From a phage: a stretch of 64,000 bases of DNA. The notes under the pieces are model-generated. The model saw only the letters and a program-made list of their open reading frames with translations, did no database searches and was not told the DNA's origin. Below, in pieces: positions 8,835-62,652 of the stretch. A program made the position numbers and the translations under genes. The DNA is taken from sequence record OZ346228.1, one strand, 5' to 3'. The first letter of the stretch is position 1. Every line of letters begins with the position of its first letter.

Positions 8835-9029
8835 ATGAGAAACAAGAAAGAGCTTTACTCTGGTGAGTGGATCAACGATCAACAGGTGGGAGAGGTAACC
8901 TGCTTCCGATGTTTTACCAGGTACAATCTTAAAACTGCACCAAAAAGTGTTCCAAAGACTGACGGTTATTACATAAAAGAACCTCATTGCCCAAAATGTA
9001 AATGCCGATTATACTGGAGTAACCTGTAA
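8835..9029 (+). CDS. small Cys-rich (zinc-ribbon-like) protein
   Basis: CFRC...CPKCKC; RBS gggagag. Confidence 0.45.
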   Translation: MRNKKELYSGEWINDQQVGEVTCFRCFTRYNLKTAPKSVPKTDGYYIKEPHCPKCKCRLYWSNL

Positions 9030-9092
9030 AAGATTGACATCTGAAAACTGCAGTGTATAATATATGCATAAACTAACAGAGAGTGATGTATT

Positions 9093-9284
9093 ATGGTAAT
9101 TTTTAACCGGGATGGTATCATAGTTAGACAGCACCCGTTCCTTGAATACTATCAAATTGAGCAATGGTGCTACGGGGATTGCAGTCACTCCTATGGGCAA
9201 AGTTGGGGATATCGTACAGTTTTTGAATCCACAGACCTTGACAAAGTAAAACAGAAAGTTTTAGAACTTCTTAACAACAAGTGA
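9093..9284 (+). CDS. hypothetical protein
   Basis: 63 aa ORF; weak RBS. Confidence 0.4.
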   Translation: MVIFNRDGIIVRQHPFLEYYQIEQWCYGDCSHSYGQSWGYRTVFESTDLDKVKQKVLELLNNK

Positions 9285-9294
9285 GTATCGTGCC

Positions 9295-9627
9295 ATGGTA
9301 ACATTGGAAAGACGTAAAGCTATTGCCGCCACACTGGCAGACATCTTTTGGGATTGTAATTTAAAATCTACCCGAAATTGTGGTGCATCTGTAGATGTAT
9401 TATTCCCACGGCCTACTATTGTTGCAATGGGCAACCTGCTCGATGTGGTATATGGAGCATGGGACAAGGAAGGTGGATTCTATATCTGGCAACCTGACTA
9501 CGGGACTTGGAAAGAGGTTAGTGGTTCTTCGGACTTCACTCCTGCAGTGGCTAAAATGGATGGCTGGAAAATCTATGTCGGTAACGACATGGAACTGAAA
9601 GGCGAAATTGTTTACTGGTTACCTTAA
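9295..9627 (+). CDS. hypothetical protein
   Basis: 110 aa ORF; weak RBS. Confidence 0.4.
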   Translation: MVTLERRKAIAATLADIFWDCNLKSTRNCGASVDVLFPRPTIVAMGNLLDVVYGAWDKEGGFYIWQPDYGTWKEVSGSSDFTPAVAKMDGWKIYVGNDMELKGEIVYWLP

Positions 9628-9648
9628 GAAAGTCCAGGAGATAAAGTT

Positions 9649-9894
9649 ATGAACAAAGGGTGGACATTTGTAGACGGCGTTAAAAACATGCCTCTAGGAA
9701 AGTATATTGTAGCCATGGCAGATGAGAATGGCAAGGTTGATTTCGGAGTTTGCGAGGTTGTTCTTGCAGGATCTGGTGACTATGCTCACAAAACTGGGAT
9801 AATTAACGGTCATTTCTACTTTGATTACAACCCTGTTGTGGCGTATATGGCTATGCCAGAGTTCGAGCTCCCAAAGGAAGGTGCAGATGTTTAA
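9649..9894 (+). CDS. hypothetical protein
   Basis: RBS caggagat. Confidence 0.55.
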   Translation: MNKGWTFVDGVKNMPLGKYIVAMADENGKVDFGVCEVVLAGSGDYAHKTGIINGHFYFDYNPVVAYMAMPEFELPKEGADV

Positions 9895-10084
9895 GCTTAA
9901 ATCTGCATGGAACATCGCTGTGGGGGACGAGATCCGTATCCCAGGTGGAAAGACCATTATGAAAATATCTCGTATCGAGTACGAAGGTGATCGTGTATTT
10001 CATATCTTTGCAGAAGATGGTCGAGAGATTTATATACAGGCAGGATCTCACATCTATATTCGTAAGAAAGGGGAGGACAAATGA
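9888..10084 (+). CDS. hypothetical protein
   Basis: RBS aaggaaggtg before ATG (MFKLKS...). Confidence 0.45.
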
Positions 10085-10410
10085 CAGAGATCATCATTTC
10101 AACTGCAGGGTATGTATTCCTGACAATCATTGCACTGGCTATTTTGGTGACAGTGTATGGGTTTGTTATCCTTCCTATCCTTGAGACATTTAGTTTGTGT
10201 CGGTGTTGGAGAAAAGCTTACGGTCCACAACCATGGAAGGACTGGCCCCACCTGGTGCGCTTAGCGTTCTCTTATGCTTACGATCACTCCAGTAGTGCAT
10301 GCATAACCGGATACCACGCCCACAACTGGAGCTGGGAAGGGTTGAGGAAATGGAATGTTACAAAGACCATACCTCTGCGCATGTACAAACCTAAAAACAA
10401 AGACAACTGA
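10081..10410 (+). CDS. hypothetical membrane protein
   Basis: RBS aaggggagga; hydrophobic segment IIISTAGYVFLTIIALAILVTVYGFVILPIL. Confidence 0.55.
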   Translation: MTEIIISTAGYVFLTIIALAILVTVYGFVILPILETFSLCRCWRKAYGPQPWKDWPHLVRLAFSYAYDHSSSACITGYHAHNWSWEGLRKWNVTKTIPLRMYKPKNKDN

Positions 10411-10990
10411 TACTTGAAAATTCCTGGCATATCAAGTATAAGGGGGATTTCTAAAATGGATTTCCTCCTTTTGATATTTCACCGGGCTGGATATTTTAAA
10501 ATTCTTAGAAAATCAGAAAATGGATCGAAAACTAAAATGGATTTTTCAGAGTAGGCGCGACAAGCTGAATAACTCATCCTATCGTTTGCACCATATTCCA
10601 GGCCACCATTATAGATTTCCCACACATGCTAACCTCTCCCTACTAGAACTTCCTCCACTTACCCTTGACCTTCTATGGTAACAATCTAACCGCTATCTTG
10701 AAGTTGCGGTGCAGCTTTCCAGGTACTCGATCTACTTTTCATTTCAGGGCTTGGATTTTCTGAAAATTTTTCTCGATAAATTTCTCAGTACTCGATCTGT
10801 TTTTCGTTTTCTGAATCGGATTTTCTGGAAATCGTTCCGGCTCTCAACCTGAAATTTTTGGGGACGAAATCGATTTTTCGTTTTCAGAAATGGATTTTTA
10901 AAATTTCTATATGGGAATATTTTAGTGGATACTGTTTTATAGGAAATTGTTACGGAGGGTAATTAGCATGCTAATTAAATTTATTAAATG
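10411..10990. repeat. iteron-like non-coding tract with several short direct repeat families
   Basis: aaaatggattt (about 4 copies), ggattttctg (2), gtactcgatct (2), cgatttttcgttttc (2); no credible ORF. Confidence 0.6.
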
Positions 10991-11009
10991 CGAGGAGTTC
11001 TCATTTAGA

Positions 11010-11240
11010 ATTTTGAATGATAATCATTCTCGTTTGCAGAATAACGGGCAGGCCCGGTGATTGTCTCCCGGCCCCTGTTGCCCCGGCTTGTTATTATAGT
11101 ATCACACAGGACAAAGAAAGCAAGGACTTTTTGCATAAATTTTTAAATGATAATGATAACCGTTCTCATTTTATGCAGCGCCCATCCCCGGTGGTTGTCT
11201 CCCCCGTCACCGGTGCCTGCCGTCCTTTCGATATGTATAT
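11010..11240 (+). promoter_or_regulatory. two Fur-box-like sequences, each heading a conserved GC-rich element
   Basis: gaatgataatcattctc at 11015-11031 and aaatgataatgataacc at about 11145-11161 resemble the Fur box GATAATGATAATCATTATC; each followed by tgcag... and a GGTGRTTGTCTCCC hairpin-like element. Confidence 0.45.
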
Positions 11241-11594
11241 TGTGCCACCTGGCGGGGCCGCTGTCAACACTTTTCAAAAAATTTTTCTAACCTGGTGCGC
11301 TAACCGTTGCAACCTGGCGGGGCCAGCCTGGCAGGACCTAACTGACCAGGTAGGGGAGAATGAAGGCTTGTAAACCTGGTGGGCCTATGCTACAGGATAG
11401 GTAACAATTGAAGAGGAGGTACAAAAATGATATGATCCCCCTGGAAAATGTAGCTATTAATGACTCTGAGGCTATCGCCCTGGTTGAAAAGGCTATGGCG
11501 GGAGCGTTGGAACATAAAGAAGAGTACGAAAATGGTGGTTAACCTGGCGGGGGCGGCAGGTGGATTCTATCATAAAAATAATTTAAAATAGTAG

Positions 11595-11623
11595 TTGACA
11601 ACAAGGTTAATCATGGTATTATT
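11595..11623 (+). promoter_or_regulatory. sigma70-type promoter
   Basis: TTGACA at 11595-11600, 17 nt spacer, -10-like ATTATT. Confidence 0.5.
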
Positions 11624-11672
11624 ACCCTACAAGGTGAACAACACCGCACTAACCAGTAAAGAGGATAAATTT

Positions 11673-11870
11673 ATGAACGCATACGGGATCAAAGTACGTC
11701 GCAACACTCGCCAGGTGGTCACCAATCAAGTGATTTGCCGGGTGGATGTAACCATCAACAACGGGCAAGGCCTTTATAAATTTCGTCGCGGTCATAGCTA
11801 TACCCTGCAACAGCTTAATCGTTGCGCCCTGACAAAAGGTCAGATCAACCACTGGTTTAATAAAAAATAA
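11673..11870 (+). CDS. hypothetical protein
   Basis: RBS aaagaggataaa before ATG; promoter upstream. Confidence 0.5.
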   Translation: MNAYGIKVRRNTRQVVTNQVICRVDVTINNGQGLYKFRRGHSYTLQQLNRCALTKGQINHWFNKK

Positions 11871-11873
11871 GTA

Positions 11874-11902
11874 TTGACATACAGTCAGACACCAAATACA
11901 CT
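11874..11902 (+). promoter_or_regulatory. sigma70-type promoter
   Basis: TTGACA with -10-like TACACT about 17 nt downstream. Confidence 0.5.
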
Positions 11903-11934
11903 AAAAGCACAAAAGACACTAAGAGGATAAAATC

Positions 11935-12120
11935 ATGAAAACCACTACCTTTAATTTTGATAATGCAGACTTTTCTTTTTCTGATGTCAAGAACTGCCGC
12001 CGTGATCGTGGATTTTACAAGGCTTATAATCTGGTGGGCCTGGACGATGACAATAATTTGCACGAAGTAGCTGAGATCCAGCTTGACAGATTGGACGGGA
12101 AAGTACTAAAAACTTATTGA
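11935..12120 (+). CDS. hypothetical protein
   Basis: RBS aagaggataaaa. Confidence 0.5.
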   Translation: MKTTTFNFDNADFSFSDVKNCRRDRGFYKAYNLVGLDDDNNLHEVAEIQLDRLDGKVLKTY

Positions 12121-12121
12121 G

Positions 12122-12167
12122 TTTATTTTTAGATGGCCTTGACACCAGGGCCATCAATAAAGTAAAC
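12122..12167 (+). repeat. repeated promoter/palindrome element, copy 1
   Basis: tttatttttagatggccttgacaccagggccatcaataaagtaaac; inverted repeat GATGGCC...GGCCATC enclosing TTGACA; directly follows a stop codon. Confidence 0.7.
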
Positions 12168-12320
12168 TAACCACAGTTGAGCGGAAAAGGAGGCTTAAAG
12201 ATGAGCACTACACGCCAGCACACAAAGGTAACCATCATCGTTTGCATCATTGGGTACATCCTGGCGCAAATGTTGATGGGTAGCGCCAACGGTGTCGCAA
12301 AATTTTTCTTAAACTTTTAA

Positions 12321-12348
12321 TTGACAAGCTAACTTAAATCGATATAAT
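12321..12348 (+). promoter_or_regulatory. sigma70-type promoter with AT-rich upstream tract
   Basis: TTGACA, 16 nt spacer, TATAAT. Confidence 0.7.
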
Positions 12349-12399
12349 AAGCACATAAACGGGAAAACTTCCCAGAACACACAAAAGGAGAAAAACACC

Positions 12400-12741
12400 A
12401 TGACTACTATGACCGCCTCAGAAAAAGCTATGCAGATCGCTGAACTGAAAAAACAGATCGCAGACCTTGAGAATAAGATCGATAACTTTGAAATCGACGA
12501 GGACAAGTACGACGAAAACTATGATGAATGGTTAGACGAGATCTACGGCGAAATTATGATCGGAAACATTTCTTTTCTTCCGTCGCGTATCCTCAAGGAG
12601 CTAGATCCTATCGCTTACCGCTGCGGATTTAGCGACTACATCGACAGCCTGGATATTGAGGACGATGAAGAATACCAGGAATTACAGACAGAGTTAGAAG
12701 AAGCAAAAGAAGAGCTTGCGGAGCTGGAAGAAAACGAGTAA
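12400..12741 (+). CDS. hypothetical acidic coiled-coil protein
   Basis: RBS aaaaggagaaaaa; promoter upstream. Confidence 0.6.
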   Translation: MTTMTASEKAMQIAELKKQIADLENKIDNFEIDEDKYDENYDEWLDEIYGEIMIGNISFLPSRILKELDPIAYRCGFSDYIDSLDIEDDEEYQELQTELEEAKEELAELEENE

Positions 12742-12742
12742 G

Positions 12743-12788
12743 CTTATTTTTAGATGGCCTTGACACCAGGGCCATCAATAAAGTAAAC
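12743..12788 (+). repeat. repeated promoter/palindrome element, copy 2
   Basis: Identical core to 12122-12167, immediately after a stop codon. Confidence 0.7.
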
Positions 12789-12830
12789 TTTATACTGTTA
12801 ACACTGAACTAATGCATAGGAGTTAAAACC

Positions 12831-13076
12831 ATGGCAGCACTAATCACCAAATATTATGCCCCTACCAACACCAAAAGCGCCCGTATCATGGTAAAAGGCT
12901 TCGGACGTAAAAAGGTGTACACCTGGGATTATGCCTTAGACACGGAAGACAACTACACCAACGCAATGACCGATTTTATTAATGAACTAAATAAGCAGAT
13001 CTTGACAAGTTATAAAGTGACCGATATTGCTTATATAGGTGAAGGCGGGATCTGTTTTGTAGGCATTGTGAAATAG
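12831..13076 (+). CDS. hypothetical protein
   Basis: RBS ataggagtt. Confidence 0.55.
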   Translation: MAALITKYYAPTNTKSARIMVKGFGRKKVYTWDYALDTEDNYTNAMTDFINELNKQILTSYKVTDIAYIGEGGICFVGIVK

Positions 13077-17073: not shown

Positions 17074-17358
17074 ATGGCTATTGTTACCGCTGGCGATGTA
17101 GTAGAAATGGAAGCAAAATACTTAAAAGCGGGTATGCATATCCTACGCAACGATCTTGAACTGGTCCTGACAATGGTTGACTATAACCCAGGGCAAGATT
17201 ATCCAAGTGTTGACTACTTTTTTGAGTATGTTGATGAAGAGTTGAAAGAGGATGAGGCCTATTGCGGTGAGTTCTGCAACTTCTTTTGTCCTGATGAGGT
17301 TGTAAAGGTTATCTATCAACCTGGCGTAGCTTTCCCGCTGCACGCTATCAATAAATAA
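17074..17358 (+). CDS. hypothetical acidic protein
   Basis: RBS ataggagtt. Confidence 0.5.
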   Translation: MAIVTAGDVVEMEAKYLKAGMHILRNDLELVLTMVDYNPGQDYPSVDYFFEYVDEELKEDEAYCGEFCNFFCPDEVVKVIYQPGVAFPLHAINK

Positions 17359-18248: not shown

Positions 18249-18399
18249 AAGCACATAGCCGCCAGATCTCAGAATTTACGTACGCTCACCAGTCTATAGC
18301 CTGCTAAGTATTTATTCCAACCATAGAATAACGGAATAGTCAATACCTGCATAAAATAATTATTCGTGTAAACTGCATAACATAAATCGGCTAGGATGT

Positions 18400-19150
18400 C
18401 AACATTTTTCGTAAACAGCTCGAAATTATAACGGTGAGTTATAATAAACAGAGAAATCTTTAGTCGTCTAATGTTTACTGTACATTACTATACTGACTGG
18501 AATCATTAGATGACTAAGAGAAAGATAAGAAATCATTAACAATGCAATTGTTTTATTCGTAACAATAAGGCAACTATGCAAACGGATGGCATGGCGCGAC
18601 GGAGTCGCGACATAATATAAAAGCAGTAACCATCACCCCCGTGATAGTTTGTCTGCAAACTATTAATCAGATCATAGTTGCCTTGTATTTAGTTAATCAT
18701 GACATAACAAGCAAGGCAACTATAGATCTGCTAATAGTTGCCCTGCTTTTATATTATGTCATAGATTATTAGCCTGTTAATTGTTAGTCAGTCAAATCAA
18801 CAACGTTATCATTTCAGTCTTTATTGTTGTTGATCGTTATTGTTATCATGCAAACGAATGGCATGGCTTATCATTTTTGAGTAAACAATCTATACGTGAA
18901 CAGTGAGGCATGCAATAGTAAGGGCGGGAATAATGAGAGTGTAAACTGTCAGGCATGTCAATTATATCAATCGTGTCAGTTATGTCACCATTATGTCAGA
19001 CAAGTTTTTCTCCTCTTTGTCAAGTGCTGCATGAAAAATTTACAATCTTGTATGGTAGCATTTTTGCGGCCCTGTTTACATTCAGTATTGTATGTATAAT
19101 CCTTGTTGTGTGGGCGTTTAGACGTCTAGACGGTCAGAAGTCTGCAGGTT
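18400..19150. repeat. palindrome- and repeat-dense non-coding region between convergent transcription blocks (candidate origin or packaging/regulatory region)
   Basis: 18 bp inverted repeat gacataatataaaagcag / ctgcttttatattatgtc; aaggcaactat / atagttgcctt inverted repeats; direct repeat atgcaaacgRatggcatggc (2 copies); hairpins gcgcgac-gga-gtcgcg and atagtttg-tctgc-aaactat. Confidence 0.55.
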
Positions 19151-20435
19151 AATATCTAATCTATCGGCTGCTAACTATATCCCACACAAATAGTAAGAAA
19201 TATAATTGTTATGTGCGTAAACAGTAACTCATGTTATCAATCCCTGTATGTATCGCCAGTGGTGCGCATAATGGGTATTATGTTAAATTGCCCGTAATGA
19301 TAATGGTTCTCACAATGATAGGTATTCTCATTCCCCCACACAAAATAGATTGCAAATGTTGTGCCACTATGTGAACGGCCTCACCTATTAATTTGCCTCA
19401 CTGCCTCGATATTTGAGAATTATCATAAGAATGAGAAGTATTCCCATTTCGTCCGCCTGGCAGCACTCCAGTCGCTACGGCTCAGAACAGGGCAGAATTG
19501 TGTCCATTCAGATATTTCTGTCTGGCTCTTCAGGTCTGTGTGGGAAAAGTCCACCTCTCTGGCGGGGCATGGGGTCATGACGGGAAAATTGCAGGTCAAT
19601 TAAAAAATTTACGTGGTGTATGAAGCGCTCTTCAGGTAAGGCATGTATTATGGGATGAAACCCTCTTCAGGCAATGATATTTGTGGGTGTGATATTTGCT
19701 GGAAAGCCAGATATGACGGGACTCCCGGCGGGGCAGGGGTAGTACAGACAGGGGAAATATGGAGGATGTGGTTAGGTGAATTGATCAGACAGGTAGAGTA
19801 TGGAATATGTTACAGGTATGTTAAATAGGGCGGCTGAATATCTGTAGGATTTGTGTGTAAAATCAAAGACTTAAGTGGTGTTGTGGTATTTTCTATAAAT
19901 AATTCAAGTTTAATAGGTAATATTTGTCTCTATTCGCTTTGTGTGGTAAACAGATTCAGATGAGATTGGTTTACAAGCGTATACATAATATACAAATTAA
20001 AGATACAAGAAACCCCCCTCCCCCTTCGGCTACCATTCACCTTTTCCTCTGACTGGTACTTAAACACTTATTCAGACTCTTCAGGTTATCACCCATATAT
20101 CATATGGCAGTGACTGGTGTCCTCCGGCCCCTCTTTCGTCACCCGTCCGCTTCGCCATGCTAATGCCATAGCCAATGGTTCGGTTGTTCACCCTGTTCAC
20201 TCAGGTGTATCTCCATACCCCTTCAAAACGAAGAGAACAGAAAACCCGAATTACTCGGTAAAAGAAAAGAGAAGAACTTAATTTTATCAGGATAGGCAAG
20301 AATGTCAAGGCATGACTGCTCACTAAACAAGCAAACAGTCATGTGTGGGAGGTAAGTGATTGTGGTGGTAGGAAATTTAGTTGAAAGATGTGTTATAGGT
20401 GCTTCCAGCACTTTAGCCGGGCAGCTAATTGTGTG

Positions 20436-62553: not shown

Positions 62554-62652
62554 GCTAGGTAAGCCCTTTGGCAAGGGCGAGGATTTTTAATCCTGAAAAT
62601 AGACGAGGTAGTCGTTGAATACATAGGTGGTTCGATTCCATCACCTAGCACC
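62554..62652 (+). tRNA. atypical tRNA-like gene; anticodon loop TTTTTAA (Lys-TTT-like), about 28 nt extra between anticodon and T arms; may be a pseudo-tRNA
   Basis: Acceptor GCTAGGT/ACCTAGC, D arm GCCC-TTTGGCAA-GGGC, T loop TTCGATT; variable region far longer than class I; CCA not fully encoded. Confidence 0.35.

Follow-up and report, generated by a model that had tools for sequence, protein, structure and literature searches.

A phage-borne transcription unit under the control of host Fur is already known from the Shiga-toxin phages, whose stx1 promoter was reportedly found by Calderwood and Mekalanos in 1987 to be iron- and Fur-regulated. In that case the phage is temperate, the cargo is a toxin gene, and a single operator lies over the promoter. 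Operators for host transcription factors are, to our knowledge, familiar from temperate phages, whereas in strictly lytic phages they have hardly been documented. Here we describe a locus in sequence record OZ346228.1, analysed as a stretch of 64,000 nt (the window) of a Vequintavirus, an rV5-like virulent myophage of E. coli. A non-coding gap near 11 kb holds two Fur-box-like operators, each beside a GC-rich hairpin element and a putative minus-strand promoter. In contrast to stx1, these units lie in strictly lytic phages, are non-coding, are conserved in two subfamilies, and carry their boxes in arrays. With the enterobacterial Fur boxes of fepA-fes, fepB-entC, and fepD-entS they share the same 19-bp palindrome and overlapping sites 6 bp apart. 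They differ from them in belonging to a virulent phage, in being closer to the palindrome than the six ent/fep sites examined, in forming arrays mostly 29 bp apart, and in lying downstream of a conserved promoter and not over its -35/-10.

The original prediction, made from the letters alone, had pointed to two Fur-box-like sequences, gaatgataatcattctc (11015-11031) and a second copy beginning with GATAATGATAA (11149-11159), the first matching the enterobacterial box at most positions. Both copies held up. Compared with the classical consensus GATAATGATAATCATTATC, copy 1 matched at 15 of 19 positions by reading and copy 2 (11149-11167) at 16 of 19, and this second site was the only one with three mismatches in the 64 kb, where 0.02 were expected. 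A better register for the phage boxes was the 19-bp 9-1-9 palindrome AATGAKAATNATTMTCATT (the form AATGAnAATnATTnTCATT is also used as consensus), published for Xanthomonas, Shewanella, and B. subtilis as their Fur consensus (PMC1790865). In this register box 1 matched at 18/19 and box 2 at 17/19. With 200 first-order Markov randomisations as the source of expected numbers, sites with at most two mismatches to the 9-1-9 palindrome numbered four in the window (0.03 expected) and those with at most three numbered six (0.23 expected), and all of the latter were confined to two non-coding regions. A weaker overlapping site was found 6 nt upstream of each strong one (11010 with 11016, and 11146 with 11152), which is the spacing reported for clusters of overlapping Fur sites (PMC2189734). 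A scan of the sequence collection with CCGGTGRTTGTCTCCC hit more than 120 mostly unrelated contigs, which was about chance level and uninformative.

Identity with the host motif was analysed with a weight matrix built from the phage boxes alone (102 distinct 19-mers of related phage loci), which was scanned against 49 kb of E. coli K-12 including the enterobactin cluster. Its top six matches (11.5-16.1 bits, the next at 6.3 bits) all fell in the divergent promoter regions fepB-entC, fepD-entS, and fepA-fes; Fur footprints are reported in all three regions (PMC2189734). Mismatches to the 9-1-9 palindrome number 0-2 in the phage boxes but 3-4 in the six chromosomal ent/fep sites, and because of this difference a high predicted affinity for Fur is suggested. 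By sequence, then, the phage motif is the host Fur box, a Fur-type operator. Three of four testable defining features of Fur boxes were found, namely the consensus, the motif of footprinted sites, and the overlapping clusters. Overlap with a promoter was the feature not seen here, the conserved promoter being on the minus strand and ending 68-80 nt from the box centre. A search of 5,426 complete E. coli genomes gave no homologue of the unit, and its capture from the host was rejected on this result.

The prediction had also taken the two GC-rich segments for similar, hairpin-containing paralogues, and alignment bore this out. The sequence GGTGRTTGTCTCCC occurs once in each segment, at 11056-11069 and at 11190-11203, and the two units of about 134 nt aligned with 89 of 124 ungapped positions identical (72%; score 61.5 compared with -4 ± 9 for shuffles), so judged by sequence the segments are true paralogues. 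In phage AlexBoehm (L169, MZ501048), a natural isolate, a 134-bp deletion equivalent to 11061-11195 has fused copies 1 and 2 in register into a single hybrid unit with box 1 and the copy 2 promoter. Therefore the copies recombine, and a phage with one unit is viable.

The 1.6 kb around the Fur-box units showed 98.7% identity to phage EdH4 and was present in 122 phage records. Within it, a 291-bp core had 95-99.7% identity in 112 of 116 Vequintavirus records, compared with mostly 90-95% for the surrounding 1.6 kb. Box 1 was unchanged throughout the Vequintavirus alignment in all but two sequences, one with a single substitution (L171) and one from which it is absent (L040). By blastn, the box with the next ~60 nt was also found in Mydovirus, Certrevirus, Seunavirus-type, and Phapecoctavirus phages of Klebsiella, Cronobacter, Pectobacterium, Serratia, Salmonella, Proteus, and Escherichia, and in one recorded on Acinetobacter; the unit was present in IMG/VR contigs of 115-150 kb as well. 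This comparison of sequences places the unit as conserved across Vequintavirinae and Stephanstirmvirinae. Because the core is more conserved than its surroundings, and because the box and the GC-rich element recur across genera, the unit is judged to be under selection. Read on the plus strand, its order is one to seven boxes, then TTTGCAGAATGAC-GGCAGG, five variable bases, GGTGTTTGTCTC, the GC-rich sequence, and an A/T-rich block. Box spacing in the relatives is mostly exactly 29 nt, and the number of boxes is four in phAPEC8, four in CR8, seven in phiWec190, and one in PVP-SE1, with two strong boxes and a degenerate one in the window. The degenerate box keeps the same 29-nt distance from box 1 as the arrays in the relatives.

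Some further observations were made on other loci. Arrays of the same box occur in two unrelated viral contigs: L011, a GC-rich contig of 33 kb, has 6-7 boxes in 200 nt (1460-1670) beside a gene that, as a guess from its translation, might encode a small terminase subunit, and in L030 (3760-3830) two perfect boxes lie within tandem repeats of 44 nt. To the right of the unit, relatives (L002 1680-1810, L004 1690-1830, and L159-L166) have another non-coding element that is strongly conserved and that the window lacks. It consists of CTACCGGCGATCCACCTTCC, a variable hairpin, and GTTAGCCCCGCCTTTTCGCCGTGGGGTGGCG, with a minus-strand promoter of its own and a pair of TCTTTACA repeats; the U-G pairs in one of its helices apparently favour the plus strand. 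In several relatives there is also a leftward gene of 89 aa (phrog_19316, function unknown), which we had guessed to encode a helix-turn-helix protein; Pfam gave no significant match for it. Finally, 16-18 records of the MG0656xx series ("Campylobacter phage ...", labelled Campylobacter jejuni) have 93-99% identity to this E. coli Vequintavirus region, so their host label looks doubtful.

Regarding the direction of transcription, 19 of 24 units have a minus-strand promoter of the form TTGnnn-N16/17-TAnnnT at a fixed place right of their GC-rich segment, for example TTGCAA-N17-TATATT in Mydovirus and Certrevirus, TTGATC-N16-TATTAT in the PVP-SE1 type, and TTGACC-N17-GATAAT. The hexamers are conserved while the spacers are wholly different between relatives, which argues for a real minus-strand promoter. 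These positions, and the L040 variant with its promoter and hairpin but no box, indicate that the unit reads leftward, on the minus strand, from a promoter right of each GC-rich segment. The original prediction had the boxes heading the GC-rich segments, which is right only as read on the plus strand; on the minus strand the box trails its segment. From the two predicted starts the box centres are roughly 60-70 nt downstream, and the box begins 4-8 nt past the hairpin. A scan found no terminator-like site on the minus strand between 11240 and 10900, and thus no intrinsic terminator to define a 3' end. A sigma-54 promoter was also considered, as GGCAss-N4-GTG resembles a -24/-12 element by eye, and was rejected, likewise by eye, because the invariant GC of the -12 is missing.

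For the minus-strand RNA of copies 1 and 2, folding predicts in each case a long imperfect hairpin whose apical loop contains GAGACAA (conserved loop GAGACAAYCACC). The fold of copy 1 had -21.6 kcal/mol, with a z-score of -1.5 on the minus strand and -0.1 on the plus strand. The fold of copy 2 had -20.1 kcal/mol, with z-scores of -2.5 and -0.7, respectively, and only 1 of 200 shuffles was as good. The plus-strand folds were no better than shuffles. RNAalifold on 19 homologues gave a 6-bp closing helix, in which the predicted 5' end AURGCG pairs with CGYYAU abutting the box. In one pair of this helix AU occurred seven times, GC seven times, and GU three times, with two mismatches. About 20 cells of the helix are G-U, and the same cells would be C-A mismatches on the plus strand. 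Of the cells, 74% were paired compared with 34-47% when partners were slid, and none of 500 shuffles reached the covariation score. The inner helix is lineage-specific and the homologues are related to one another, so we regard the support for RNA structure as moderate. A covariance model with copy 2 left out of training found copies 1 and 2 and nothing else credible in 64 kb. Local alifold, run on the whole region, left the strand undecided, the energies being similar for both. Rfam 15, including RyhB, gave no match at E up to 1 for 9000-13000 of the window and four related loci. A Klebsiella phage record (OY978796.1) has tRNA-Met and tRNA-Ile annotated over the unit at 10891-11044 (L002 1511-1664). 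This tRNA assignment was rejected: ARAGORN found no tRNA in L001-L005 or at 11 kb of the window, and because it finds none there, the tRNA coordinates of that record are probably misplaced. The features of the gap are collected in Table 1.

Table 1 Features of the non-coding gap and its Fur-box units in the window
Feature	Position	Strand	Details
Non-coding gap	10411..11594		1.2 kb, no credible genes; holds all parts of the units; from ORF (open reading frame) list and promoter scan
Three tandem repeats, 65-74 nt	10713..10898		Core GTACTCGATC...TTTTCG...GGATTTT; repeat search; left part of the same gap
Degenerate third Fur-like box AATGCGAGGAGTTCTCATT	10987..11005		4 mismatches to 9-1-9; 18.2 bits (phage-box matrix); 29 nt upstream of box 1
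Fur box 1 AATGATAATCATTCTCGTT	11016..11034		1 mismatch; 26.2 bits; weaker overlapping site 11010-11028
GC-rich hairpin element, copy 1	11035..11092	-	Covariance model 57.9 bits, E 6.6e-12; apical loop with GAGACAAUCACC
Putative promoter, copy 1	11093..11123	-	TTGCTT, 19-nt spacer, TATAAT; predicted start ~11086; aligns with promoters of relatives
Fur box 2 AATGATAACCGTTCTCATT	11152..11170		2 mismatches; 26.9 bits; overlapping site 11146-11164 with 3 mismatches
GC-rich hairpin element, copy 2	11174..11215	-	Apical loop GAGACAACCACC; covariance model 17.8 bits, E 0.046
Putative promoter, copy 2	11239..11267	-	TTGACA, 17-nt spacer, TG-extended CACAAT (TGgCACAAT); predicted start ~11232; scan 10/12 matches plus TG

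We propose a tentative model, quite possibly correct, in which Fur-Fe2+ would block leftward non-coding transcription past the hairpin. Host RNA polymerase would start at the minus-strand sigma-70 promoter (11123-11093 in copy 1, 11267-11239 in copy 2) and would first transcribe the GC-rich RNA hairpin of about 50 nt, and just past it would meet the 19-bp Fur operator. When iron is plentiful, Fur-Fe2+ would sit on this operator, or in the relatives on an array of up to seven, and would stop the polymerase just after the hairpin has formed, which means that only a short hairpin RNA would be made. Under iron scarcity, it would pass the operator and go on transcribing leftwards, into the remaining non-coding region with its tandem repeats. 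As a side effect, the many replicating phage genomes might soak up host Fur. The layout suggests iron-dependent control of phage transcription. What sequence and comparison show are the operators, their conservation, the paralogous units, where the promoter lies, and which strand folds better; Fur binding at these sites, the roadblock, the effect of iron, and any physiological consequence are inferred.

Several points weigh against this model. It is unusual for a Fur site to lie downstream of the start, and from such a position repression in E. coli may be weak (PMC2189734). In copy 1 the promoter spacer is suboptimal in length, some relatives have an extra minus-strand promoter just left of the boxes where Fur could act from upstream, and no gene or terminator was evident further left for a read-through transcript. 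On the RNA side, the consensus helix is weak (-1.17 kcal/mol) with only one or two pairs that truly covary, and the shuffle control can be beaten by related sequences without structure. The Vequintavirus variant L040 keeps the GC-rich element, promoter, and hairpin with no box, so the hairpin unit can exist without an operator.

The boxes could instead act mainly in trans, as a multicopy sponge: replicating genomes in their hundreds, with several boxes of high predicted affinity on each, would titrate Fur and derepress the host iron-uptake regulon together with RyhB, to the advantage of the phage. Fur boxes in multicopy derepress genes under Fur control, as reported with the Fur titration assay (FURTA) by Stojiljkovic, Baumler, and Hantke in 1994, and the phage boxes are nearer the palindrome than the ent/fep sites, as would suit a sponge. 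Box number also varies from one to seven between close relatives, as expected of a dosage trait, and there are three more boxes at 19.3-19.45 kb of the window as well as the arrays in L011 and L030. However, the distance from the proximal box to the hairpin is fixed in all genera, and because of this a function in cis is indicated. The PVP-SE1-type phages, moreover, have one box, and one-box and two-box Vequintavirus variants both occur. We therefore consider a role chiefly as a sponge unlikely; we know of no phage that exploits Fur titration.

A second possibility, to which we give the same low rating, is that the boxes are iterons of a transcription-primed replication origin, bound by a phage protein or by Fur in an architectural role and working with the tandem leftward promoters, the GC-rich RNA, and the A/T-rich repeats. 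No replication origin is known to us for these phages. The regularly spaced palindromes, the two tandem promoters reading into A/T-rich DNA, the ~65-nt tandem repeats further left, and the A6T6 tracts in relatives would all fit, and repeated sites beside an A/T-rich region are indeed an origin feature, though as a resemblance only. The T7-like replisome, with Pol A and a gp4-type helicase-primase (PMC3606486), would fit as well. However, the box equals the host Fur motif position by position across genera, which an initiator-specific iteron need not do. No initiator gene is adjacent in the window, and GC skew shows no switch there except those tied to transcription direction (PMC3606486). Host-type origin signals were sought in the region and rejected: there were no DnaA boxes, no IHF sites, and no clustering of GATC, of which the 1.2 kb has 4 while the window averages 5.3 per kb. 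With 340 GATC in 64 kb, the window as a whole is above the roughly 3.9 per kb expected at equal base frequencies. A physical genome end was also considered, as the record of Salmonella phage R7 starts 71 nt left of the box and annotates attL/attR; its ends are a 91-bp identical overlap in the tandem repeats, which is most likely an assembly overlap, and the candidate was dropped. A broader reading, in which virulent phages of two subfamilies would have recruited the host iron sensor and their arrays of nearly ideal Fur operators would be both an iron-dependent switch on a non-coding, possibly replication-priming unit and a Fur sponge that reprograms host iron metabolism in the course of infection, seems doubtful to us as a whole.

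The original prediction read the unit in the other direction. In the form considered here, the box would overlap a plus-strand promoter, and Fur would repress two small plus-strand RNAs made from the GC-rich segments. Fur boxes do normally overlap promoters (PMC2189734), and the proximal box in most Vequintavirinae starts TTGAAT after an A/T-rich tract, which resembles the early promoter consensus of the family, AAAA(N3-4)TGTTGAC (PMC7344957); nnGAAT follows 18 nt later. This TTGAAT-N18-nnGAAT over the box was the sole plus-strand candidate. By reading of the alignments, however, several lineages (CTGAAT, CGGAAT, CAAAAC) are without the A2 or T6 that its -10 would need, there is no such promoter in copy 2, and copy 1 of L040 keeps the GC-rich element with neither box nor -35. 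The poor plus-strand folds and the C-A mismatches of the closing helix on that strand speak against it too, and no plus-strand terminator was found in the scan. Thus the claim that the boxes sit on plus-strand promoters driving the segments was not supported, against a minus-strand promoter in 19 of the 24 units, and we regard plus-strand repression as improbable.

The coding capacity of the unit was checked on both strands. On the plus strand, the ORF at 11017-11373 has no Shine-Dalgarno sequence and encodes 118 aa here, compared with 92 aa in rV5, where the stretch is annotated as "ORF 198, hypothetical protein". Its sole family match was phrog_14993, a PHROG of unknown function with 92 positions as in rV5. 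The frame is not preserved, being broken by a 1-nt insertion in L015 and by the 134-bp deletion in AlexBoehm, so ORF198 was rejected as a gene, in agreement with the prediction, by which this overlapping frame lacks a ribosome-binding site and reads like translated repeats. A minus-strand peptide, RETNTxPARYSANENDxHS, seemed conserved but was rejected as well; its frame has stops immediately upstream in L036 and L038, has no start in the CR8 type, and is a different one in copy 2. By these comparisons the unit is non-coding. Although many relatives besides rV5 have ORF198 annotated, with its PHROG match, and PVP-SE1-type sequences have the minus-strand frame open and with an ATG, these broken frames, and four sites where 0.03 were expected, exclude for practical purposes both a protein-coding region and chance A/T-rich palindromes.

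Other features of the window lie around and beyond the units. The gap is flanked by small plus-strand genes and then by a run of consensus sigma-70 promoters with small genes. The first of these early plus-strand promoters, by the promoter scan, is at 11595, the right edge of the gap, and near-consensus promoters of the form TTGACA-N16-18-TAnnnT stand at 11595, 11874, 12139, 12321, and 12760, each ahead of a small plus-strand ORF, which is a typical early-gene block. Inside the gap, a perfect 18-bp palindrome, TAATTAGCATGCTAATTA, is located at 10960-10977, with the tandem repeats on one side and the degenerate box on the other; most aligned Vequintavirus sequences have it unchanged, rV5 and L170 have one substitution, and L040 and L082 do not keep it. 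Repeats of ~66 nt resembling the tandem repeats of the window also lie left of the Fur box in PVP-SE1-type phages. The motif AACCTGGCGGGGCC occurs at 11246, within the copy 2 promoter as its spacer, at 11311, 11373, and 11541, and at 17358, where it forms the hairpin GGCGGGGCC-gaaaa-GGCCCCGCC directly after an ORF; with at most three mismatches there were 10 matches compared with 1.9 expected.

A second gene-free region of 2.1 kb (18250-20350) lies where plus- and minus-strand gene blocks converge. It has three further Fur-like boxes, at 19296, 19314, and 19430 (2-3 mismatches), together with CTGGCGGGGC-type motifs and many short repeats. This region corresponds to 104.9-105.2 kb of rV5, near the box labelled "non-coding" in the rV5 paper, and its 19.3-kb stretch was found within the genus only, at 88-96% identity and mostly 90-95%. 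At the far end of the window, ARAGORN found a 99-nt tRNA with a four-base anticodon (atcc) at 62554-62652, within a cluster of seven tRNA genes; this tRNA may be frameshift-type, intron-containing, or degenerate.

Full-text literature searches, together with the rV5 and Certrevirus genome papers, gave no description of Fur boxes in lytic phages or in this group, and Fur is not mentioned in the rV5 genome paper. The motif itself belongs to the known Fur-box family. As a system, though, we found no description of virulent phages with a conserved non-coding unit of promoter, hairpin, and operator in phased arrays. Through such a conserved and nearly ideal Fur operator module, infection by phages of the rV5, PVP-SE1, CR3, and phAPEC8 groups would be tied to the iron status, and iron is, in the gut as in inflamed tissue, the main nutritional variable. 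Many phages isolated as candidates for phage therapy and biocontrol belong to these groups, and the module marks a conserved non-coding region that earlier genome papers labelled "hypothetical protein" or "non-coding".

Beyond stx1 and the ent/fep boxes, four described systems can be set beside the phage unit. Like RyhB, a Fur-repressed small RNA, it would give a short structured RNA associated with a Fur box; unlike RyhB, it has no Rfam match, its box is not over the promoter, and it has no Rho-independent terminator and no evident Hfq site. It resembles the lambda ori iterons and the T7 primary origin in its regularly spaced palindromic sites and in tandem promoters into A/T-rich DNA, but its sites equal a host repressor motif and it has no adjacent initiator gene. 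As in FURTA, many strong Fur boxes per cell would be expected to lower free Fur, with the difference that FURTA is a laboratory plasmid assay. LacI, CodY, and CcpA are roadblocks to transcription elongation, and the hairpin-plus-operator arrangement that we propose for the phage, with Fur as the putative roadblock, would resemble them in placing a tightly bound repressor downstream of the start, here just after an RNA hairpin.

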